From Candidatus Saccharimonadota bacterium (GTDB lineage Bacteria > Patescibacteriota > Gracilibacteria > UBA4473), in contig JACKFV010000001.1 in NCBI GenBank assembly GCA_020632335.1, positions 390,001-422,000 on the forward strand: 32,000 bases of DNA. The letters are read 5' to 3'. Position numbers and translations under genes: made by a program. Of this stretch, positions 282 through 31,906 are shown one piece after another (position 1 is the stretch's first letter; the number at the start of each line of letters is the position of its first letter). The notes beneath the pieces are model-generated. The model was not told where the DNA came from. It made no database searches and saw only the letters and a list, made by a program, of their open reading frames with translations.

Positions 282-1745
282 TTATTTCACTCCCAGGTCG
301 GCCTTGATGGCGTGCAGGTGCCGCGCGGTGTGGGCGTCGCTCTCCAGCTGCTGGTGGATCTTCTTCACCCCGTGCATGATGGTGGTGTGGTTCTTCCCGC
401 CGAAATCCTCCCCGATCTGCTCATAGCTCATCCGCAGCACGTCGCGGCACAACACCCAGCACAGCTGCCGCGCGAAGACCACCTGCTGCTTGCGGCTGGT
501 GCCCAGGATGTCAGTAGCGGGGATGCCGAAGTAGTCCGCGATGAAGGTGATGATATCGTCGGTATTACGCGCGATGCCGCGTTTGGCTTCATCGGCCGTC
601 TGTAGCGGTGCACTGGGGTTGAGCTTACGCAGTATGCGGCTGACCGACTGCAGCGTGGGCGGCGTGTGGGTCAGCTCTACCTCCGCGCGGATCTGGTTCA
701 CCAGGTTCTCTACCTCTCGCAGCGTCTTGCGTACGTTGGCCGCGAGGAACTGCTCTATATCTGCCGGAAGGAGAAGATCGGCCGCTTGGGCTTTTTGCTG
801 TACTATGGCAATACGGGTCTCGAAGCTCGGCAACTGGACATCTACCGTCAGCCCCCAGCCCATACGACTGCGCAGCCGGTCTGCGATGCCGGTGAGCTCT
901 GACGGGGGCCGGTCTGCCGCAAAGATGATCTGCTTCTGCCCCTCGAAGAGGTCGTTAAAGGTATTAAAGAGCTCGTCTTGCGCGTGCTCCTTCCCGTCAA
1001 AAAACTGCACATCGTCGATGATGAGGACGTCTGTACGGCGGTACTTCTTACGGAATTCGTCGGTCTTGCGCTGGCGGATAGCCTTCACCAGCTCGTTGAG
1101 GAACCTCTCCGCGGTGGTATAGACCACCACCGCCTCTCCATCGCGCCGCAGCACCTCATTGGCCGTGCCCTGCAGCAGGTGGGTTTTGCCCAGCCCCACC
1201 CCGCCATAGATGAAGAGCGGGTTGTACTTCTTCTCCTTACCGGCGGCCTCGGCCACGGCCATGCAGGCGGCGTGCGCCAGGCGGTTCTCCTCCCCCACGA
1301 TGAAATTTCGGAGCGTCAGGTGACTGCTGAGCACCCGGCTCTCCACCCCTTCTTGCAGCCGCACGGTGGGCTCGTGGCGGATTTTCTTGGCGCTCAGTTG
1401 CTTCTCAAACAACGCTGGGTAGGCCACCGGAGCGTTGCTGAGCGAGAGATCGGTATCGAAGTAGACCTGGTCTACCTGTGGGCTCACGGCCTGGAGGTTA
1501 CTGAGAATGATGCCCCGGTACTTGCTACTGAGCCAGTTGCGGTGCATGTCGGTGGGGGCCAGCACCATGGCGCCGCCGCCCTCTATGCGCGCCAGCTGTA
1601 CCTTGGGGAACCAGGTGTGGAACTCCATACGGCTGAGCTTCTCACTCAGGCGCGCCAGCACGGCCTCCCATATCTGCTCTGTGGTCATGGTCAGCCCCTC
1701 CCCGATGTTCTTCCCCGTGGTGGCGGTGCTCGGTTCAGGACTCAT
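282..1745 (-). CDS. dnaA: Chromosomal replication initiator protein DnaA
   Basis: 487-codon ORF ending in TAA (282-284). Walker A FIYGGVGLGKTHLL, Walker B VLIIDDVQFF, C-terminal DnaA DNA-binding signature GGKNHTTIMHG. The ATG at 1745 has no SD and sits directly after a candidate -10. The internal ATG at 1686-1688 is preceded by GGAGG (1697-1701, 8-nt spacer), so 282..1688 (468 aa, MTTEQIWEAVL...) may be the true CDS. Confidence 0.95.
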   Translation of the reverse strand: MSPEPSTATTGKNIGEGLTMTTEQIWEAVLARLSEKLSRMEFHTWFPKVQLARIEGGGAMVLAPTDMHRNWLSSKYRGIILSNLQAVSPQVDQVYFDTDLSLSNAPVAYPALFEKQLSAKKIRHEPTVRLQEGVESRVLSSHLTLRNFIVGEENRLAHAACMAVAEAAGKEKKYNPLFIYGGVGLGKTHLLQGTANEVLRRDGEAVVVYTTAERFLNELVKAIRQRKTDEFRKKYRRTDVLIIDDVQFFDGKEHAQDELFNTFNDLFEGQKQIIFAADRPPSELTGIADRLRSRMGWGLTVDVQLPSFETRIAIVQQKAQAADLLLPADIEQFLAANVRKTLREVENLVNQIRAEVELTHTPPTLQSVSRILRKLNPSAPLQTADEAKRGIARNTDDIITFIADYFGIPATDILGTSRKQQVVFARQLCWVLCRDVLRMSYEQIGEDFGGKNHTTIMHGVKKIHQQLESDAHTARHLHAIKADLGVK

Positions 1746-1751
1746 AGCCCC

Positions 1752-1779
1752 ACTATAGCAGGGTTATCCACACGCGCAA
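1752..1779 (-). promoter_or_regulatory. Candidate sigma70-type dnaA promoter (-35 TTGCGC, 16-nt spacer, -10 TATAGT)
   Basis: The minus strand reads TTGCGC (1779-1774), then gtgtggataaccctgc, then TATAGT (1757-1752). The spacer contains the DnaA box, the classic autorepression layout. The -35 matches consensus only at TTG. Confidence 0.4.
1764..1772 (+). promoter_or_regulatory. Perfect consensus DnaA box TTATCCACA
   Basis: Exact 9/9 match to the TTATCCACA consensus. It is 19 nt upstream of the annotated dnaA ATG and lies inside the spacer of the candidate dnaA promoter. Confidence 0.7.
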
Positions 1780-1816: not shown

Positions 1817-2872
1817 TCACTCCATCTGCTGAGCACGCACAAGAATACGCTCGGAGAGGTCGGTATTACAGGTGAAGAGGAGGGCGTCTGTCTCCGGCGA
1901 GCTATCCCGCAGGGCCTCAGCGTCGCGCTGGGAGATAGCGGTTTTCTCGATGATCACATAGTGCCGCGGCTGCCCATCCACCGTGAGGGTGAGGGTGTCG
2001 CCACGGGTGATATCCCGCTGCAGCAGGGGGCTGAGCACTGGGCCATAGGGGGTGGGGTCTCCCTCCCAGGTGGAGGAGTGGCCAAAGACGATAAAGTTCT
2101 CGTTCTCACGGTCATAGTAGTAGCCCAGGCCGGTATTGGTCAGGTCGTCCAGCCACACGCTGGGGTCAGTCAACAAGGTGGGCGTCGCGGGGATAGCCTG
2201 TATGCTCGTCCCGTCGACGGTAAGCTGTATCTGCTCGCGGTAGTGGGGCGCGGCTTCATCTTGCACCCGGAGCGTGCGGGAGAGCAGCGTAAAGACCTCA
2301 GCGCGGGTAACGGGCGTGCTGAAGTCCCGCAAGGCCAGCGACGGAGGAATAACTCCCTGGGCCATGAGCGCGTCGTAATAGCGCTGCGGCCAGGGGGTGG
2401 AATCAGGTGCTTTGGGGTCACTATGGCCAAAGCCTACCGCCAGCAGCTTGAGGATCTCGCCATAGGTGATCTCCCCTGCGGGACGGAAGGTGCCGTCAGT
2501 ATAGCCCTTGAAGACCCCCATGCGCAGCAGCGTCTCGGCGTAGGGGAAGTACCACTGGGTTGGGTCGAGGTCCGGGAAGGAGGGGGATGGCAGCACGGCC
2601 AGCAAGCGTAGCTCCAGCGCGTGGGAGAGGATCTTGGCCACCTCAGCGCGGGTGATGGGCGCCTCCAGAGTCATGGTGCCGGTATTCCCCTGCCCGCTGA
2701 TGATGCGCTGGCGGTAGAGATCCACCGTGGCCTCATACGCTGGGTGGTCAGCGGAGGTATCACTAAAGATGGAATAGGCATTGTACTTGGCCCGCAACCA
2801 GTCTGGCACACTGGCCTCTGCCAGCCCAGCAGTAACCGAGCACAAGAGCAAGAGCAGCGCTAGAGGTCTCAT
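1817..2872 (-). CDS. Secreted protein with three SLH repeats and a C-terminal sortase-like (His-Cys-Arg) domain
   Basis: 351-aa ORF ending in TGA. Signal peptide MRPLALLLLLCSVTAGLAEA/S. Three SLH-like segments: SIFSDT...APITRAEVAKIL; FPDLDPTQWYFPYAETLLRMGVFKGYTDGTFRPAGEITYGEILKLL; ...FSTPVTRAEVFTLLSRTL. The C-terminal ~140 aa follow the sortase pattern: NFIVFGHSS (His265, nt 2078-2080), RGDTLTLTVDGQPRHYVI, ALLFTCN (Cys335, nt 1868-1870), Arg342. The His-to-Cys spacing is 70 aa, similar to known sortases. Confidence 0.75.
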   Translation of the reverse strand: MRPLALLLLLCSVTAGLAEASVPDWLRAKYNAYSIFSDTSADHPAYEATVDLYRQRIISGQGNTGTMTLEAPITRAEVAKILSHALELRLLAVLPSPSFPDLDPTQWYFPYAETLLRMGVFKGYTDGTFRPAGEITYGEILKLLAVGFGHSDPKAPDSTPWPQRYYDALMAQGVIPPSLALRDFSTPVTRAEVFTLLSRTLRVQDEAAPHYREQIQLTVDGTSIQAIPATPTLLTDPSVWLDDLTNTGLGYYYDRENENFIVFGHSSTWEGDPTPYGPVLSPLLQRDITRGDTLTLTVDGQPRHYVIIEKTAISQRDAEALRDSSPETDALLFTCNTDLSERILVRAQQME

Positions 2873-2881
2873 AAGCCTAGT

Positions 2882-3265
2882 CTAGCGCAAAACACCCGTG
2901 AGGGGAAGCACCGAAAGCAGCTCCAGGTTATTCGCCTCGCGGGTGAGAGAGGTACCCAGTGGCGTCTCCGCCTCGGCCAGGAGGACCGTCATATCTCTCC
3001 CGGTGGCGGGTGGCGGGGTGAGCGCAAGGATCTCCACAGGCTCTGGAGTGCTGGCCAGCAGTGGCGCAGCCGGCAGGGCGTACTGATAGGGCACAGAAGG
3101 CGCGGAGCCCAGGGCTCCTGTAATGGGCGTCTCGAACTGGCGAATGCCACCGTACTGCGCGCCCACCTCCATCAGCGAGAAGAGCGCCGGCCCCACGACC
3201 CCCACCGCGATGAGGACCAGACTCGTGAGCCAGGGGTTCTGCAGATGGTGGCGAGGAGCGTTCAT
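2882..3265 (-). CDS. Small N-terminally membrane-anchored Pro/Ala-rich protein ending in LPLTG-VLR; candidate sortase substrate
   Basis: 127-aa ORF ending in TAG. It is co-directional with the sortase-like gene and ends 9 nt before that gene's ATG. It has a single TM helix (LTSLVLIAVGVVGPALFSLM). The C-terminus reads ...LSVLPLTGVLR-stop, with the LPLTG codons at 2894-2908. I recognise no homolog; coding status rests on ORF length, operon position and the motif. Confidence 0.55.
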   Translation of the reverse strand: MNAPRHHLQNPWLTSLVLIAVGVVGPALFSLMEVGAQYGGIRQFETPITGALGSAPSVPYQYALPAAPLLASTPEPVEILALTPPPATGRDMTVLLAEAETPLGTSLTREANNLELLSVLPLTGVLR

Positions 3266-3327
3266 CGAGAATATATGTAAGAGTACTTTCAGGAAAATCT
3301 CATGATTGGCAAGTGAATTATTACTTT

Positions 3328-3356
3328 TTGACAGAAATGTGGTTACTGTCTAGGGT
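3328..3356 (+). promoter_or_regulatory. Candidate promoter for the GH17-GT2 gene (perfect -35 TTGACA, weak -10)
   Basis: TTGACA at 3328-3333 in the divergent intergenic region. After a 17-nt spacer comes TAGGGT (3351-3356), which matches the -10 consensus at only 3/6 positions. Confidence 0.2.
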
Positions 3357-3411
3357 GCGTATGTAGAGTATCTGTATACACTCTCTGAAAAATACCTGGC
3401 GCCAGTGGCTC

Positions 3412-5328
3412 GTGGTGGTGGGGCTGCTGGTGCTGCAGGGGGGGCTGTGGTACGCGCATCGTGCACCGGTCAGCCCGCCGGCCATGCCCGAGAAGCTCCC
3501 CTGTGTGAGCTATGACCCGCACTACGCCCTGAGGGGCTACAACCCCCAGCACGATCAAGCGGTTATCTCCCCCCAGCAGCTGGAGCGGGACATGGCTTTC
3601 CTCCAGCGCATCACCAGCTGTGTACGGGTCTACAGCAGCACGGGTGGCCTGCAGCGCCTGCCGAGGATAGCCCAGCAGTACGGCATGAACGTCATCGTCG
3701 GAGCGTGGATAGACCCCCAGTACCCCGAGCGCACCCGGCAGGAGATAGACAACGCGCTCTGGATGGCCAACAACAATAGCAATGTGCCGCAGGTGATTCT
3801 CGGGAATGAGGTGCTGTTCTTCGAGCAATACACGGTGCCCGAGCTCATTGCTATACTCGACGATGCTCGATCTCGTACGCAGGTGCCCCTCAGCACGGCC
3901 GAGATGCCCTTCAACTGGGAATGGCACCCGGAGCTGGTGGCGCACGTGGATTTCCTCACTATACACGCCTTCTCCTACTGGGCGGGAGAGCCAAGCAGCC
4001 ATAGCATAGCCCCCCTGGCGGCTGACTATAAGAAGGTACAGCGCGTGGCGGGTGGCAAGCGGATATTCTTTGGCGAGGTGGGGTGGCCGAGCGCTGGGTA
4101 CCAGCAGGGGCAGGCGCAGCCGGGAGTGCAGCAGCAGGGGCGGTTCCTGCGGGAGTTTGCACACCGTGCGGCGCAAGAAGGCTGGTGGTATAACGTCATA
4201 GAGGCCTATGACCAGCCGTGGAAGCTCCGCACGCAGGAGGGCAGAACGGGCGCGCACTTTGGGCTCTTTACCCCGAGTGGGCAGATGAAGTGGCCCTGGA
4301 GCGGCCCGCTGGAACGCCTGCCGCACTGGGAGTGGTGGGCCGGGCTCTCTCTGCTGCTGAGCGCCTGGTGGAGCGTCTTGCTCTGGGAGCGGCGTCACCC
4401 TGGCGGCTGGGGGGTAGAGCTCTTCCTCCACGGGAGCGGGCACGTCTTTGCGGTGGTGCTGGTGCTGGTCGGCTATACCCTCCACAGCGAGTACCTGCTG
4501 CGCCTGCCCATCATCTGGGGATTCCTCGTGGTGCCGCTGCTCTTCTTGGCTCTTGTGGTGGTGGCCAAGGCCCGAGAGAGCGCCCCGGTGCTGCGCCGTG
4601 TGCCGCTCCTGCAGGTGCCTGTGCCCGTGCCGCTACCGCTAGACCCGCCACTGGTGAGCCTCCACCTGCCCACCCACAACGAGCCGCCAGAGGTGGTGAT
4701 CGCTACGCTGCGGGCGCTTACGCGGCTTGAGTACCCCCGGTTTGAGGTGCGCGTGCTCGACAATAATACGCGTGATACAGCGCTCTGGGAGCCGGTGCAG
4801 CAGTACATCACCGCGCTGCAAGACCAGCGATTTCACTTCCATCACTCGGAAGAAATCACGGGGTATAAGGCCGGCGCGCTGAACTGGGGCATCTCCCTCA
4901 CTCCGCCAGAGTACTCCCTCATCGCCTGTATAGATGCGGATTACCAGGTGCAGCCGGGGTGGCTCGGGCAGGTGGTGGGGTATTTCTCAGACCCGCAGGT
5001 AGCCGCGGTGCAGTGCCCCCAGCACCACCAGAGCCCACACATGACCCCACAGCAACGCGCCATGTGCGCCGAGTATGAGGCTTTCTTTCATATCGGTATG
5101 GTGAGGCGTAATGAGGATAATGCCATTGTCTTGCACGGAACGATGGTGTGCCTGCGGCGCTCGGTGCTGGAGGGAATAGGCTGGCCGACGCATACCATCA
5201 CCGAGGACGCTGACCTAGGGCTGCAGCTGCTGATGGCGGGCCACCGAGTGCTCTACCACAACGCAGTGCTGGGGTCTGGGGTGCCGCCGGTGGATTTCTC
5301 GGCGTATGAGCAGCAGCGGTTCCGGTAG
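3412..5328 (+). CDS. GH17 glucanase/transglycosylase - TM - GT2 processive beta-glycosyltransferase fusion (NdvB-like), N-terminal 638 codons up to a premature TAG
   Basis: GH17 motifs ILGNEVLF and FFGEVGWPSAG. Three TM helices lie mid-protein. GT2 motifs LPTHNEPPEVVIATL, ACIDADY, ITEDADLG and QQRFR, followed immediately by TAG (5326-5328). The GTG start at 3412 is uncertain; the frame is open from 3367. Confidence 0.85.
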   Translation: MVVGLLVLQGGLWYAHRAPVSPPAMPEKLPCVSYDPHYALRGYNPQHDQAVISPQQLERDMAFLQRITSCVRVYSSTGGLQRLPRIAQQYGMNVIVGAWIDPQYPERTRQEIDNALWMANNNSNVPQVILGNEVLFFEQYTVPELIAILDDARSRTQVPLSTAEMPFNWEWHPELVAHVDFLTIHAFSYWAGEPSSHSIAPLAADYKKVQRVAGGKRIFFGEVGWPSAGYQQGQAQPGVQQQGRFLREFAHRAAQEGWWYNVIEAYDQPWKLRTQEGRTGAHFGLFTPSGQMKWPWSGPLERLPHWEWWAGLSLLLSAWWSVLLWERRHPGGWGVELFLHGSGHVFAVVLVLVGYTLHSEYLLRLPIIWGFLVVPLLFLALVVVAKARESAPVLRRVPLLQVPVPVPLPLDPPLVSLHLPTHNEPPEVVIATLRALTRLEYPRFEVRVLDNNTRDTALWEPVQQYITALQDQRFHFHHSEEITGYKAGALNWGISLTPPEYSLIACIDADYQVQPGWLGQVVGYFSDPQVAAVQCPQHHQSPHMTPQQRAMCAEYEAFFHIGMVRRNEDNAIVLHGTMVCLRRSVLEGIGWPTHTITEDADLGLQLLMAGHRVLYHNAVLGSGVPPVDFSAYEQQRFR

Positions 5329-5340
5329 GCCTATGGCGGC

Positions 5341-5949
5341 GTGGGGATCCTCCGGCGGTACTGGCGGGCGCTCTTTTTGGGGCATTCTCGGCTCAGCAGG
5401 GCGCAGCGCTGGCACTTCATCAGCGGGTGGCTGCCGTGGCTGGCAGACGCGTTCTACCCGCTCTTCACCATGGCGGGGCTGGGGTGGAGTGCCCTCCTGC
5501 TGGTGAGCGACCGGCTGATGCTGCCCGAGAGTTTCAGCTATCCGCTGCTGTTCTTTGCCGTGTGGAATACCGTGCAGAGCGCCTGGACCTACCACACCGC
5601 GGTGCCGGGGGCCCGTATGCAGAGCCTCTGGCAGAGCACGGTGGCGGGCAGTAGCCTGACCAGTAGTATTGCTCTGGCGGTGTACCAGCAGTTGCTGGGT
5701 ATGCGGGCCAGCTTCCACGTGACGCCAAAACAAGGCAGCACCAGCGCCCCGTGGTGGCAGGCGCTCTGGCGGGCAGACTTTGTACTGAGCGGGCTCTATT
5801 GGCTGGCGGCGATGGCAGCGTGCGTGCTGTGGAGCGTGCGCTACGGGGCGATCCATACCGAGGCGCTTCTCTGGGCCATAGCCGCAACGGTGATGGTACT
5901 GCCCAGCCTGGCGGCCGTACGGATGATTTCGTATAGAAACCCGGTGTAG
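5341..5949 (+). CDS. C-terminal multi-pass membrane portion of the same GT2 synthase (same frame as 3412..5328)
   Basis: Same reading frame as the upstream ORF (3412 and 5341 are both frame 1). The sequence right after the TAG reads AYGGVGILRRYW..., the normal continuation after QxxRW in cellulose-synthase-like GT2s. Several hydrophobic helices follow. Stop is TAG at 5947-5949. Confidence 0.7.
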   Translation: MGILRRYWRALFLGHSRLSRAQRWHFISGWLPWLADAFYPLFTMAGLGWSALLLVSDRLMLPESFSYPLLFFAVWNTVQSAWTYHTAVPGARMQSLWQSTVAGSSLTSSIALAVYQQLLGMRASFHVTPKQGSTSAPWWQALWRADFVLSGLYWLAAMAACVLWSVRYGAIHTEALLWAIAATVMVLPSLAAVRMISYRNPV

Positions 5950-6250
5950 ATATCTATTACCAATATTTTTGCTATGTAGTTGTGGTAAAATAGCTGGTAT
6001 TAGCGGTCTGGCTGTGCAGCGCTATAGCACGGTATCTCTCGCTCTGCTGGCACTCGGTAGACCATATATAGGGCGGTGCACAACGCTAGTTTCGGGGTTA
6101 TTTATAGCTGATAATCGGTTGTAAATACTTCTAAAAAGAGCATTAAACCACAATAGTGCAACTATGTAGCACTTGGGTGCACCGCAGCACCTACTTGTGC
6201 TTGCGCGCGGCTCTCTCCATCGTAGATGCTGTATCGTATACCCCAGATTC

Positions 6251-6380
6251 ATGCGTCATCTGCGTCGCGCGCTCTCGGCTCTTCTCACCACGAGTCTCCT
6301 CGCTAGCCAGTACAGTGTCTGGCTGCTGGCAGGATTCCTTGGGAATCAGCTCATCAGCCCCGGCCAGGCCGCGGCGTCCT
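6251..6380 (+). other. Predicted signal peptide / N-terminal signal anchor of the giant protein
   Basis: Basic n-region (MRHLRR), a long hydrophobic stretch, then PGQAAAS as a possible AxA-type cleavage site. Confidence 0.5.
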
Positions 6381-9300
6381 TCGTCATCAACGACAGCGTG
6401 GGGGTCTACACCTACACCGCGGGGAGCCAGTGGATGCCGGGGATCATCCCCCCCACGGGCAACCCCGGGAATATCAGCGACCCCAGCTATAACCTCACCC
6501 CTGCTGGTGGCACGGGCATTACCCTCTATGATACCGGGCTGGGTACGGCGCACGTCAGCACCATTGCGGTCTCTCCCCTGTCCTTCGACGCCTGGGAACG
6601 GCTGGTCATCCACACAGGGCTGGTGTCTCCGCAGCATAGCTATACCGTGGAGGTATTCGACTGTAGTAGCGGTAACCTCTTAAGTGGCACGGCTCCCAGC
6701 CTGGGCACTCTCACCCAGGGCAACACCAGCAGCGGGCAGATAGTCTATGACATGAGCGGTTATGATAACACCTACACCTGCCTGCAGGCTCAGGTGACGA
6801 TGCAGCAGGGGGGCGCGAGTTTCCCTCCGGTAATAGAGGGGATAGATATCGAATGGGATCCTCGGCCAGTGTGGCTGACGGACATCAGCTGTGCTGGTAG
6901 CCCTACAGAAGTAGGTAGCCAAGGAAGCTACACCGTACGCTACTCACTCAGCTATGCTGACGATAGTAATAGTGTGGTGTGGGTCCCCCTCCCCAGTGAT
7001 GGCAATGGTATCCTCTACCCCGGTGCCTACCCCACCCCCGGGAGCGCCACTAATGCCAGCTCTGCCTATGGGCAGACAGTCCCCCCCACAGCACCTACCA
7101 GCATCAGCCACGGCGGGCAGTACACCCCCACGGCTACCACCGTGCTGGGGCAGGCCATACCCGCCAATAGTATCTACTGGCAGCTGGGAGCTGTAAAAGC
7201 AGGAGAGACGGGCGTCATGAGCTTCAGCTGGCCACTGCCTAATGGGTTCCAGGACGGGATCACCGGAGCATTCCAGAGTAGTGTTACCTCGGCTAATACA
7301 GGTGTACTCAGCTCTAGCCCTGTGGTGTGCCCCTACACTGCCACCCCAGAACCCCGCATGAATAAAGAGGTTTCTGGTGGGTTTTATCAGTCCAATACAC
7401 AGACCCACTATCTCTTTGATAGCTTTGGCTATAGTACGGTAGCGACGTACCACCTGGACTACAGTAATTATCGGGAGCTGGCTCCACACCCCTACTGGGG
7501 GAGTAGGAATAGTACCAGCGATGGGAAGGGAGGGGAGGAGGTGTATAACGCTGTACTGGTAGACGATGTAAGTGAAATCATCGACGCTCTAGACGCCAGT
7601 TGTGGTGGGAGCAGTGGTGCCATTACTGCTATCAGCAGTGGGGGCGTACTCGACTCTCTGGCAAAGACCATTACGTGGTCTCTGGGGGATCTGGCCATCA
7701 ACGACTATGGAGAAGTCACCTATAGCGTGGACTATGGCGGCTGCCCTGAGGACACCACCGTCACGAACACTGCCACTCTCTATGGGGACAATATTACCCC
7801 ACTACAAGACAGCGAAATAGTCAGCATACAGACCCCACCACGAGGGAAAGGTGCCTTTGCCAAAGGAGATGAAGCAGACTGGTACAATACCATCAATGGC
7901 ACCACGCAGTACAGTGTGCCACAGATATGGTCACATGTAGATAATAATATCCCCGGTATTTACCTCAATAAATGGGATATACAACCCCATACGCACGAAG
8001 AGGCGATTACCTATTACCTCCGGGCAGCCACTACAGAGCAAGGAGGCAACAGAGCCATGAGCGATGTAGTGATGGTCGACAAAATACGAAAAAGTGGCAA
8101 CGCCCTAGATGACCCTAATGTGGGCGCGGCTTTCTCTGGAGTGACGTTTATCTCGGCCAAGCTAGACCCGAGTATCACTCAGTATGGTCGTATTTTTTAT
8201 TATACGGGGTCTGATACCACCCCGGCGATAGAGCCAGGAAGTGACGCTCCGCTCTATGACTATGCTGACTTTGCGGCTTATGCCGGCCCTGCAGATACCG
8301 ACATCGGTGGCGGATCGCTCGGGTGGAAACTCTATAGCCTCAGCACTACCCCCCCAGCCAGCGTAGACTGGGTGGCTTTTTATATCCCCTGTATATCCAG
8401 CAATGCCTTTCCCATCAGCACCGAACCCTGGGGACGCTGCGCCTATGGCGACTACAACCCCCTCCACCCCAATGCACTGGATAGTAACCCGAATAATGAC
8501 TACGTACCTGATAGGATCACGAACAGCATCACAGTGACTATCGACACCCCCGCAGACGCCTGTGAGAGCTACGTCATCCCTAATGAGGGGAACTTCAAGG
8601 CGCATCGTCTGCCCACTGACACCCCCGGTACTCCGGCACGAGAAGACCTCGAATGGCACTCTGGCAGGGGCGACAGTGATCTTTCTCTGAGTGAAGGATT
8701 TTCTTCTGTAGGGGATCTGGAATACACCCATGTGGTGCCTACCCTGGGAGGCTTTGGCTACAGTAGCATGGAGGTGGATGGGGAGAGTACCATCTATATG
8801 ACCGACACAGATACCTTCTCTACCAGCATCACCGTAGAGAATCTGGGGAGTGACACCGCCCTCAACACCACTGTAGAGGTACCCATACCAGTAGTAGCGG
8901 CTAATAATGGTTCCTTTGGGCTGACGCTCCTGGGGGTGTCTCTGGGAGGGTGGAGTGGCAGCGTGGACTACAGTGGGCTGCCCAATAGCATCAGCATAAA
9001 TCTGGGGACTCTGCCGGTGGGGATGCAAGCCGAGCTCTCACTCGACTGGCAGCTGCCTATGGGCATCCCGGATAACACTCTTGTGCCGCTGACAGCTACG
9101 GTGTCCTTTGCAGACAACAACAGCTGCCCCACCCCATCACAGCCGCTGGATACCGCTGTTGTGGTGCGCAACACCCCTGAACTCGTACTGAATAAGTACC
9201 GTGACGCGGCGCTTATCCCCAGTGGGGAGGCGGTGAATTATCAGATAACCGCGCTCAACCTGGGCCCTGCGGTGAGTAGTGACACCTTTGTCTTTGATGA

Positions 9301-28516: not shown

Positions 28517-28536
28517 GTGGATAGTTATGTACAGAA

Positions 28537-28565
28537 ATACTAGCGTACTGTGGGGATATTGTCTA
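28537..28565 (-). promoter_or_regulatory. Candidate promoter of the ssb-tpiA-dprA operon (-35 TAGACA, 17 nt, -10 TAGTAT)
   Basis: The minus strand reads TAGACA (28565-28560), then a 17-nt spacer, then TAGTAT (28542-28537). The -10 hexamer ends 20 nt upstream of the ssb ATG. A DnaA-box-like CTATCCACA (8/9; 28516-28524 on the plus strand as tgtggatag) overlaps the ssb start codon. Confidence 0.3.
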
Positions 28566-28602
28566 TGCCCCGGTGTTTGATTTTTGTGGTTTTTATCGTA
28601 AA

Positions 28603-28716
28603 AAGAGAGTCTCTAGGAACTCTGCACCGGGCAGGGTCTTCTGGGGTGGGTTTTCCACAGGGGTATGCTGAGTGGAAAAAGTGAACAGCATTCCGGGCGC
28701 TCTCAGAGTATCTCTT
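28603..28716. other. About 114-nt set of nested inverted repeats (three helices); candidate structured RNA, long terminator, or protein-binding site
   Basis: H1: aagagagtctct (28603-28614) with agagtatctctt (28705-28716), 10/12 pairs. H2: ggaactctg (28616-28624) with cagcattcc (28686-28694), 7/9 pairs. H3: ttttccac (28651-28658) with gtggaaaa (28672-28679), 8/8 pairs and a 13-nt loop. On the minus strand the 3' arm of H1 runs into CUCUCUUUUUACG, a U-run. No ORF explains the 389-nt rmuC-ssb gap. Confidence 0.3.
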
Positions 28717-28905
28717 CCCCTCTTACAAGGGCGTGGCAGTGTGGTGGGGATGCTGGTGCATTGACGGCATTGCTCTCTATGTCGGGGTATCTTTCTGGTG
28801 GCGGGGTGGCTGCTCAGGAGCCATGAGGGAGATTATGCACGAGCAGAACCTGCTGTTACTACTATTTTTTTTCAATAATTTCAAAAGAAAAAGCAGCGGA
28901 AGCGT

Positions 28906-30057: not shown

Positions 30058-30130
30058 AGCCTATACCGCGCGCTGCATTCGTCTAGGCAGAAAAGGTAGA
30101 CGCCACCGCCGCCGTATATAGAGTGAGACC

Positions 30131-31906
30131 ATGCGCCAGAAGCACGTAGTGAGTGGCCTGATTCTCCTCCTGCTGGGGGGGGTCATGCTGCTACAGTCGC
30201 AGATACCCCAGTGGCGAGCGCTGGCGGAGGCCAGTGTGGAGAGTGCCCTCAACGCCGGTACCAGCGCAGAGGCGTGGCAGCTGGCAGCCTACCAGGCCGA
30301 GAGTCTGCCCAGCGTCTACCCCTTTACGCTGCTCTCGCGCACCATCACTGACCTCTCAGCCGTGGCCGCGGCGTACGAGCGCCTCCCCAGTGTGGCCAAT
30401 TTTTCGCTGACGTCACAGCCCTTTCTTTATAGCGATATCGAGCCCTATTACCAGTTCAGCCGCACCCTGCGCACCACTATAGCGTCGCTGCAGTCGCGAC
30501 TGGGGCGCCTGCCACGAGGGATATTTACCCCAGAGCAGCAGCAGGAGCTGCGTCTGCTGGAGGGGCAGATGAAGATACTGAGCGGCTGGCTGAAGGACGC
30601 GGAGGAGATCTACGCAACGCTGAAGGAGCACCGTGACCGCGTGCTGATTCTCTTTATGAATGAGAACGAGGCCCGTGCTGGAGGCGGTTTTGCGGGGTCG
30701 CTGGCTTACCTGGATTTCGCTCCGGGGGGGGTGTACCTCAGCTTCCACGACATCTACAGTGAGGACCGGCTCCTCCCCGAGAGCGCGAAACTCCCCGCGC
30801 TAGACTACTTCACACCGCTGGACCCGCTCATCAGCCTGAAGGATGTCCCCGCGCTGAGCGCTGACTTCCCTACCCTGGCCGAGCAGTACCAGGACTTCTA
30901 TAAGGCCATGCCCAGGAGCTTTGTGCCCAGTACCGTCCTGGCGGTAGATACCCAGGCCATACGCACGCTGCTGGGGGCGCTGCCGCGGGCCATCACGCTG
31001 GAGCCCTGGGAGATCACCGTGACGCCCGAGAATGCCGATATGGTACTGCAGTTCTTGGTGGAATCTAAAATTGCCGGCCGCTATGACGTCAAATCCCCCA
31101 TCATGCAGCTGGGGGTGCAGCTCATGGATCCAACGCTCTGGCGGGGTTTTGCCCTGGGGGAGGAGAACGCGGCGGCGCTGCTGGAGCTGCTGGAGCAGGG
31201 GCACGTGCGGCTCTGGAGTGAGCGGCGAGTACTGCAGTCCCTTGCCGAGCGGGCGGGCATGACTGGCCAGGTGACGCGCAGCCGGAATATCGACGATTTT
31301 CTCCAGCTCAGCATCACGAATATTGGCGCGAATAAGTCGGATAGATTTGTAGATACCGCCGTGCACCACCGCACCAAGGTCCTCCCCACAGGCCTGGGCA
31401 AGGTCTACCTGACGCTGCGGCGTACCCATACGCTGGCTCCGGGGGAGATAGACCACCTGCTCGGCACCACGAGACTCAGCCCGAATGTCGCCAGCACCCT
31501 CACCGACGCGGTGCGCTATGTCTTGGGAGACAGCCAAAACCGCGCCATTATGCATCTGTCACTCCCTGCGGGGGCCGTCATAGACAACTACAGTAACCCC
31601 AGTGGCAGCTATAACGTGCTGGAGGATAGCCCCTTCAGCAACGCGCAGACGGTGGAATTCCCCATGCATGTGAGCCCCGGCGAGTCACTGGAGGTAGTGC
31701 TGGAGTACACGGTGCCGCTGAAGAGAGGATCGAGCGCCTGGCGACCCTATAGCTTTGAGCTGCTGCCCACCCCCGCCCGAGAACGCAGCGAGTTCATCAA
31801 GACCATCACCACGACCGACGACGGGCAGCTCACCGCCGAGACCGAGAACATGGGCCGCCCCCTGCCCTTGCAAGAGCAGATCTACCGCGCGGTGGTGGAG
31901 TTTTAG
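30131..31906 (+). CDS. Membrane-anchored DUF4012-like protein
   Basis: 591 aa. N-terminal TM helix (VVSGLILLLLGGVMLLQ). The segment VLILFMNENEARAGGGFAGSLAYLDFAPGGVYLSFHDIYS resembles the DUF4012 core (N-x-x-E-x-R-x-x-GG-F-x-GS). The family call comes from memory of the motif, not from a search. Confidence 0.6.
   Translation: MRQKHVVSGLILLLLGGVMLLQSQIPQWRALAEASVESALNAGTSAEAWQLAAYQAESLPSVYPFTLLSRTITDLSAVAAAYERLPSVANFSLTSQPFLYSDIEPYYQFSRTLRTTIASLQSRLGRLPRGIFTPEQQQELRLLEGQMKILSGWLKDAEEIYATLKEHRDRVLILFMNENEARAGGGFAGSLAYLDFAPGGVYLSFHDIYSEDRLLPESAKLPALDYFTPLDPLISLKDVPALSADFPTLAEQYQDFYKAMPRSFVPSTVLAVDTQAIRTLLGALPRAITLEPWEITVTPENADMVLQFLVESKIAGRYDVKSPIMQLGVQLMDPTLWRGFALGEENAAALLELLEQGHVRLWSERRVLQSLAERAGMTGQVTRSRNIDDFLQLSITNIGANKSDRFVDTAVHHRTKVLPTGLGKVYLTLRRTHTLAPGEIDHLLGTTRLSPNVASTLTDAVRYVLGDSQNRAIMHLSLPAGAVIDNYSNPSGSYNVLEDSPFSNAQTVEFPMHVSPGESLEVVLEYTVPLKRGSSAWRPYSFELLPTPARERSEFIKTITTTDDGQLTAETENMGRPLPLQEQIYRAVVEF

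Follow-up and report, generated by a model that had tools for sequence, protein, structure and literature searches.

An amber codon at the invariant Q-x-x-R-W tryptophan probably inactivates an NdvB-like GH17-GT2 glucan synthase gene in a Patescibacteriota genome

Introduction

What does an in-frame stop codon signify when it falls on the catalytic-motif tryptophan of a processive polysaccharide synthase? The question is raised by a gene for a GH17-GT2 glucan synthase on a 32,000-nucleotide stretch of contig JACKFV010000001.1 (GenBank assembly GCA_020632335.1, positions 390,001 to 422,000 of the forward strand; this whole stretch is hereafter the window). An earlier note, made from the sequence alone, placed a TAG codon on the tryptophan of the Q-x-x-R-W motif of this gene and left three options, i.e., a recent inactivating mutation, a sequencing or consensus error, and readthrough used as a switch. 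We conclude, with good confidence, that the codon arose fairly recently by an ordinary G-to-A nonsense mutation and inactivates what was an NdvB-like GH17-GT2 glucan synthase. Both the kind of event and the family are already known.

Results

The amber codon replaces an invariant tryptophan

Positions 5314-5328 of the window read CAG CGG TTC CGG TAG and are followed in frame by GCC TAT GGC GGC GTG. Beyond the TAG (5326-5328) the frame stays open for a further 206 codons, to position 5949. Translated as one frame, 3412-5949 comprises 846 codons, of which only codon 639 is an internal stop, and the open reading frames (ORFs) 3412..5328 (638 aa) and 5341..5949 (202 aa) lie in the same frame. We searched about 5.8 billion proteins with a query in which the stop was bridged by tryptophan. 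At E<=1e-10 this returned 2,739 matches, and the best 119 of these, with the window's own 636-aa product left out, were used as the homolog set. All 119 are single proteins (846-964 aa, 35-41% identity) that align over 89-100% of the bridged query (most over 97-99%); they span the stop position and none is split in two.

In a MAFFT alignment with these homologs, the columns around the stop hold Q (119/119), R (119), F/Y/H, R (119), W (119/119), A (114), Y/F, and G (119). The product of the window gene runs to Q635-R-F-R638 and then meets TAG, i.e., it carries the QRFRW motif without its tryptophan. The stop thus occupies a sense-codon position of all homologs, none of which has an amber codon at this column, and homology carries on 3' of it in the same frame. 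These data confirm that the amber codon sits on the invariant tryptophan, and with W at this column in every homolog they bear out the reading of codon 639 as TGG changed to TAG.

The interrupted frame encodes a GH17-GT2 synthase

Pfam searches of the upstream ORF identified the GT2 families PF13641 (E=3e-24) and PF00535 (E=4e-21), together with a GH17 match that is sub-threshold (E=0.0047, below the curated cut-off); the downstream piece, searched alone in Pfam, gave no match. NCBIfam returned partial, sub-threshold matches only, to cellulose synthase CelA and PgaC. Pfam places GT2 together with GH17 in most of the 119 homologs, and a name that many of them bear is 'exo-beta-1,3-glucanase (GH17 family)/cellulose synthase...'. 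Among structures in the PDB, residues 403-812 align to BcsA 129-547 (4HG6, 5EJ1; E about 6e-20) directly across the stop, and residues 55-286 match the GH17 beta-1,3-glucanosyltransferase 4WTP (E=3.5e-18). The GH17 catalytic columns are intact, with G131-N-E133 and E222-V-G-W-P-S, both invariant in the 119 homologs, and so are the GT2 catalytic motifs upstream of the stop (D450-N-N, D508-A-D510, and T-E598-D599). The assignment as a GH17-GT2 glucan synthase made in the earlier note therefore stands on Pfam, PDB, and homolog matches alike.

This architecture has been described for 'Orphan'/NdvB-type proteins of pseudomonads, which combine a periplasmic GH17 domain, a membrane region, and a cytoplasmic GT2 domain (PMC10237404). 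The motif variants given for them are DNN, DxD, (C/T)ED, QRFRW, and FFRTPK, and the tryptophan of QxxRW places the terminal glucose and contributes to the entrance of the channel (PMC10237404).

The part of the window gene downstream of the stop aligns to the membrane region that follows QxxRW in BcsA, up to about BcsA residue 547. The C-terminal channel helices and a loop of the FxVTxK type are conserved in sequence, yet they lie in ORF 5341-5949 and not on the same polypeptide as the catalytic domains. The description of this region as a multi-pass membrane domain holds by homology to BcsA but gains less from a simple hydropathy scan; the label rests mainly on homology because the scan shows clear helices only at residues 788-841.

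The TAG allele recurs in separately assembled sequencing runs

The 638-aa and 202-aa products are both present in Logan assemblies of individual sequencing runs. The split gene was found on contigs from SRR12358675 (17 kb; L001), SRR12358676 (12 kb; L002), and SRR15882951 (945 bp, starting at window position 5324; L003), the last belonging to an accession series distant from and unrelated to the other two. Where they overlap the window, L001 and L003 match it at every position (100% identity), and L002 has one mismatch, at window position 7444, outside the synthase gene. Both L001 and L002 read CGG TAG GCC; they are not copies of one consensus, since they differ from each other at nine sites elsewhere. 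A full-length TGG version was absent from the collection of about 15 billion proteins that was searched, and metagenome contigs of JGI contained no exact match to a 35-mer around the site, with either allele (the variable base entered as N). Because three separately assembled runs all carry TAG, a one-off sequencing or assembly error is very unlikely, and the error option of the earlier note is all but excluded; a minority TGG allele in the population is improbable but conceivable.

Of the nine sites at which L001 and L002 differ, eight fall in a 90-bp stretch of adk (adenylate kinase; contig positions 206-296), upstream of the window; such clustering points to recombination over a short tract or to an artefact of strain mixing. 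The ninth is the G/A difference at window position 7444, in the giant gene described below.

The two halves show no sign of being separate proteins

We considered whether the downstream half could be translated independently. None of the 12 in-frame ATG, GTG, or TTG codons in 5329-5700 has a -10-like hexamer at leaderless spacing or a Shine-Dalgarno-like sequence. Shine-Dalgarno sequences were likewise seen at none of the genes in the window, and a scan of 3200-6400 for the sigma-70 consensus gave nothing. A restart at GTG 5341 would leave out the invariant W639 and G642. Orthologs split at this same point, which the earlier note named as grounds for doubting a pseudogene, did not turn up among the 119 homologs (0/119).

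TAG is the principal terminator of the surrounding genes

Stop-codon usage was tallied over 14 genuine gene ends in 36.5 kb, i.e., the window plus 4.5 kb upstream of it in L001 (1-4512). TAG closes 10 of these genes, TAA three, and TGA one. The TAG-ended genes include the small ORF at 2882, the giant gene, dprA, TIM, DUF4012, ssb, and the downstream half of the synthase gene itself. Gene ends agree with the ends of domain models: the TIM profile matches over 4-237 of its 245 positions in a 227-aa protein, DprA_WH occupies 307-356 of 365 aa, and the sortase profile (23-123 of 125) closes three residues before its TGA. The earlier statements that TAG ends the 2882 ORF, the giant gene, and dprA, and that wholesale reassignment is unlikely, are thus upheld. 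Both TAG reassignment and an efficient amber suppressor are very unlikely, because with TAG as the principal terminator either would extend most proteins.

Dedicated recoding signals were also sought. ARAGORN detected no transfer RNA (tRNA) in the window, to which this search was confined, and Rfam gave no match there. The predicted folding of the 81 nucleotides (nt) around the stop (5287-5367) was no better than that of shuffled sequences (-27.6 versus a shuffle mean of -32.4 kcal/mol; z=+1.36). In yeast, near-cognate decoding inserts glutamine, tyrosine, or lysine at UAG, and tryptophan only at UGA (PMC4150775). With such insertions, leaky decoding of UAG would not restore the essential tryptophan. 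Adenosine-to-inosine editing of bacterial messenger RNA (mRNA) by TadA has UACG in a hairpin loop as its known motif; the sequence at the amber site is UAGG, without a predicted hairpin.

Several further candidates were rejected. Phase variation was discounted for lack of a repeat or homopolymer at the amber site. Pyrrolysine recoding would involve the wrong enzyme class and is at odds with TAG as a general terminator. Genetic code 25 was discarded since about 11,000 codons of called genes are without an in-frame TGA and the lone TGA stands at the expected end of a sortase domain.

TGA is rare as a stop for DNA of 60% G+C content (GC), at one of 14 ends in this small sample, and is absent in frame from the same roughly 11,000 codons. 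Gracilibacteria reassign UGA to glycine. The lineage may avoid TGA in both roles.

The start codon may carry a second lesion

Several genes have a -10-like hexamer 6-7 nt 5' of their ATG. A match to TA[GT]A[GC]T-N6-ATG is found at three places in the 36.5 kb, compared with 0.46 +/- 0.67 expected, and all three stand exactly at called starts, namely those of dnaA (1745, minus strand), the SLH-sortase gene (2872, minus strand), and the DUF4012 gene (30131, plus strand). Looser versions precede a trmA-like gene, trxB (at its second ATG), and a Lactamase_B gene, all in L001. This distribution suggests that leaderless transcripts are widespread here. The hexamers seen are TATAGT, TAGACT, TAGAGT, TAGGCT, and TAGCAT, and GCGC often lies 5' of them.

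The synthase gene has the same hexamer and spacing, followed by ATA: the in-frame codon at 3376 begins 6 nt after TAGAGT and lies 12 codons 5' of the first canonical start, GTG 3412. An ancestral ATG at 3376 was probably lost by a second G-to-A change, because TAGAGT-N6-ATA sits where sibling genes have TAGNNT-N6-ATG. The N-terminal extension read from ATA 3376, IHSLKNTWRQWL, provides a charged n-region and lets the N-terminal hydrophobic helix reach its full length, as it does in the homologs; the added residues I-H-S-L-K-N-T-W-R-Q-W-L bring this helix to normal size. Read from GTG 3412, the anchor is too short and without a charged n-region, and 30 residues precede the GH17 domain compared with a homolog median of 37. 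The region of ATA 3376 is identical in L001 and L002. This probable start-codon defect had not been noticed in the earlier note.

The mutation appears young and its position unremarkable

The downstream remnant keeps 12 of 12 homolog-invariant columns and the upstream part 85 of 91. The ratio of downstream to upstream identity (0.844) matches that in intact homologs (0.839 +/- 0.046). By this comparison the remnant has no detectable decay, in a test that at 38% identity would show only very old pseudogenes; the lack of detectable decay points to a mutation that is young relative to the divergence from the homologs. Six residues of the gene depart from columns invariant in the 119 homologs, i.e., L187F, P188S, W283F (in the GH17 'WG' motif), R401Q, C466I, and I573V, which could reflect lineage-specific divergence or an early relaxation of constraint.

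There are 38 other TGG codons in the synthase gene, and TGG accounts for 76 of its 131 single-transition routes to a stop (58%). About 17 nonsense-mutable codons lie on invariant columns; the position of the amber codon is therefore not remarkable, since roughly one in five nonsense transitions would strike an invariant residue.

The neighbouring genes are intact

Coordinates of the synthase gene, its candidate promoter and start, and the neighbouring features are collected in Table 1.

Table 1. Positions of the synthase gene, related sequence motifs, and neighbouring features (window coordinates unless L001 is named).
Feature	Position	Strand	Remarks
-10-like hexamer TAGAGT	3364..3369	+	candidate leaderless-type promoter of the synthase gene; same hexamer and spacing as sibling genes
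ATA codon, in frame	3376..3378	+	where the leaderless pattern predicts ATG; putative G-to-A lesion
Upstream ORF, 638 aa	3412..5328	+	N-terminal anchor, GH17, transmembrane (TM) helices, GT2; ends Q-R-F-R-amber
GH17 domain	about aa 46-294, nt 3547-4293	+	part of upstream ORF
TM helices	aa 334-394	+	hydrophobic segments between GH17 and GT2
GT2 catalytic domain	aa 403-638, nt 4618-5325	+	Pfam GT2 families, BcsA alignment
Premature amber codon TAG	5326..5328	+	occupies the invariant Trp (TGG) of Q-x-x-R-W; W in 119/119 homologs
Downstream in-frame remnant, 206 codons	5329..5949	+	rest of interface helix IF2, C-terminal membrane helices, gating-loop motif; TAG at 5947-5949
Gating-loop motif F-H-V-T-P-K	aa 768-773, nt 5713-5730	+	in downstream remnant, 3' of the stop
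dnaA	282-1745	-	neighbour gene
SLH-sortase fusion, 351 aa	1817-2872	-	SLH E=5.5e-15; sortase domain sub-threshold, E=1.1e-5
127-aa ORF	2882-3265	-	no family match; adjoins SLH-sortase gene
Giant ORF, 6,699 codons (6,673 from ATG 6251)	6173/6251-26272	+	uninterrupted
ssb, 138 aa	28100-28516	-	Pfam SSB E=2.8e-36; below ORF-list cut-off, read by hand; abuts TIM start
Noncoding gap, about 390 bp	28517-28905		before rmuC; T-rich and A-rich runs; no Rfam match
-10-like hexamers with start sites	1745-1757 (-), 2872-2884 (-), 30119-30133 (+), 3364-3378 (+)		motif scan
Looser -10-like hexamers	L001, upstream of genes at 785 (+), 3092 (-), 4150 (-)		

The neighbours are intact, and decay is limited to the synthase gene. 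The giant ORF contains DUF11, DUF7619, at least 15 SdrD_B repeats, CarboxypepD_reg, Cna_B, and SpaA domains, and its extreme C-terminus matches a sortase domain weakly (E=3.7e-4, below cut-off); its domain content looks like that of a surface adhesin, which may have its own sortase-like module. The link to the envelope that was suggested earlier, from the sortase and adhesin neighbours of the synthase gene, is positional only. SLH and sortase in one 351-aa protein form an unusual fusion.

The nearest relatives of the host were assessed through DnaA, which shares 59% identity with a Candidatus Gracilibacteria metagenome-assembled genome (MAG; GC 36%) and 46% with a Candidatus Peribacteria MAG (GC 47%); GC in the window is about 60%. 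Neither L004 nor L005, the nearest relatives by DnaA, has a glucan synthase within 10 kb of dnaA. At least one other MAG of the candidate phyla radiation has an intact family member (P0005, Paceibacterota, 846 aa). Close orthologs were not found: the protein search gave about 40% identity at best, genome contigs scanned with the N-terminal ORF gave no match, and a scan of metagenome contigs with the bridged protein gave 0 matches. The TIM gene was found only on contigs shorter than 2 kb.

Discussion

Taken together, the homology that runs across the stop, the tryptophan present in all 119 homologs, and the recurrence of TAG in three runs give good support to the option of a recent inactivating mutation. 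The ancestral product would have been a beta-1,3-glucan synthase of the NdvB/'Orphan' type, with the GH17-TM-GT2 architecture in a single chain. By analogy with the family literature, its cytoplasmic GT2 domain would polymerise glucose from uridine diphosphate glucose (UDP-glucose), the C-terminal membrane helices would form the channel for the growing chain, and the outward-facing GH17 domain would then cut or cyclise the glucan. A G-to-A change at window position 5327 would have turned the tryptophan codon of Q-R-F-R-W into TAG, such that translation would stop after Arg638. The truncated product would be unable to act as a processive synthase because the acceptor-stacking tryptophan, the channel helices, and the F-x-V-T-x-K gating loop are gone. 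The mutation is real, and TAG is the consensus allele in every sample in which the organism was assembled. If the start was lost as well (ATG to ATA, 3376-3378), the gene would be a pseudogene with two lesions among intact neighbours. We judge the synthase gene to be a nonsense pseudogene of the ordinary kind or, at most, a gene of crippled function.

Some points weigh against this conclusion. Close relatives are lacking (the best homolog has about 40% identity), so we infer the ancestral TGG and ATG indirectly, by way of distant homologs and promoter geometry. The test for decay has little power at this divergence. The persistence of the allele across three runs and two haplotypes fits a neutral or beneficial loss, and also a useful truncated protein. 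Finally, the evidence for the allele is at the level of assemblies, and the tRNA search covered the window only.

The last of the readings of persistence, that the truncated gene is still useful, we consider unlikely. The 638-aa fragment, made from GTG 3412 or by weak initiation at ATA, would act through its GH17 domain on exogenous beta-1,3-glucans, with synthase activity lost, or else the halves would be made separately and assemble. The intact GH17 catalytic columns and the persistence of the allele are compatible with this, as is the enzymatic characterisation of isolated GH17 domains of Pseudomonas homologs (PMC10237404). Against it, the downstream half has no start signal of its own, a restart at GTG 5341 loses W639 and G642, no homolog is split, and the anchor from GTG 3412 is too short and lacks a charged n-region; if the ATA lesion is real, the N-terminal fragment would be poorly made too. 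It is more doubtful again that A at 5327 is an artefact, or that it hides a co-existing functional TGG allele as a minority variant. The source is evidently a metagenome-assembled genome and micro-diversity is present, as the nine differences between L001 and L002 attest, but the three separately assembled runs, one of a distant accession series, carry TAG with 100% identity around it, the full-length TGG version is missing from about 15 billion proteins, and the JGI contigs match the site with neither allele.

Regulated or leaky decoding has a slightly smaller claim still. Here a suppressor tRNA, near-cognate decoding, or UAG-to-UGG editing of the mRNA would let small amounts of the full-length synthase be made, as a form of throttle or switch. 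The circumstances that lend themselves to this view are the perfectly preserved downstream frame and the relationship of DnaA to Gracilibacteria and Peribacteria MAGs, Gracilibacteria being a group with UGA-to-glycine reassignment. On the other side, an efficient suppressor would be costly with TAG at 10 of 14 gene ends; the stop has no structure, the window no tRNA, and no homolog a stop at this column; the UAG near-cognates known from yeast would not supply the tryptophan; the UAGG site without a hairpin is unlike the TadA loop motif; a point mutation is not a reversible switch; and the probable start-codon defect points to decay. Nothing was found in favour of the switch raised in the earlier note. 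The most elaborate form of this idea, in which the amber codon is decoded at a low and controlled frequency by a specialised suppressor or UAG-to-UGG editing and, together with a weak ATA start, keeps a costly synthase at trace level, is the least probable of all the readings considered; if true, it would amount to a recoding-based throttle on envelope polysaccharide synthesis.

Inactivation by an ordinary nonsense mutation has practical consequences. Annotators should join ORFs 3412-5328 and 5341-5949 into one entry, marked as a disrupted NdvB-like glucan synthase gene, and should not ascribe beta-1,3-glucan synthesis to the organism. Such gene loss is expected in reduced, host-dependent bacteria. 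The locus would gain greater significance only if the stop were shown to be decoded, and nothing points that way.

Comparison with known systems

The closest counterparts are the NdvB/'Orphan' GH17-TM-GT2 synthases of cyclic beta-1,3-glucan, e.g., P. aeruginosa PA1163, which are known from a bioinformatic description (PMC10237404). They have the same domain order as the window gene, i.e., anchor, GH17, TM, GT2, and C-terminal TM, and share with it the motif variants DNN, DxD, (T/C)ED, QRFRW (with W replaced here), and F-x-x-T-P-K. In contrast to that type, the frame in the window is cut by TAG at the QRFRW tryptophan and has ATA at the start position, and the host is apparently a high-GC relative of Gracilibacteria and Peribacteria rather than a proteobacterium, and is without a close ortholog. 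BcsA (4HG6, 5EJ1) is homologous in its GT2 core and the following membrane helices (query 403-812), with the QxxRW tryptophan at the entrance of the transmembrane channel and the gating loop FxVTxK after it. Unlike BcsA, the window gene has no PilZ domain, has an N-terminal GH17 domain, and is interrupted; by family inference, its product would be expected to be beta-1,3-glucan and not beta-1,4-glucan.

With systems of programmed readthrough, amber suppression, or pyrrolysine recoding, the locus shares an in-frame UAG and a long homologous open frame after it. It differs from them in that the stop is not conserved in relatives, no stimulatory RNA element or link to a pyrrolysine-type enzyme is seen, no suppressor tRNA lies nearby in the window, and TAG is the main terminator. 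The likeness to ordinary bacterial nonsense pseudogenes is much more complete: one G-to-A change at TGG, the most frequent of the one-step routes to a stop in the synthase gene, has left downstream homology in frame and neighbours intact. Nothing essential sets the locus apart from them, its only particular feature being that the stop falls on a residue of a catalytic motif.

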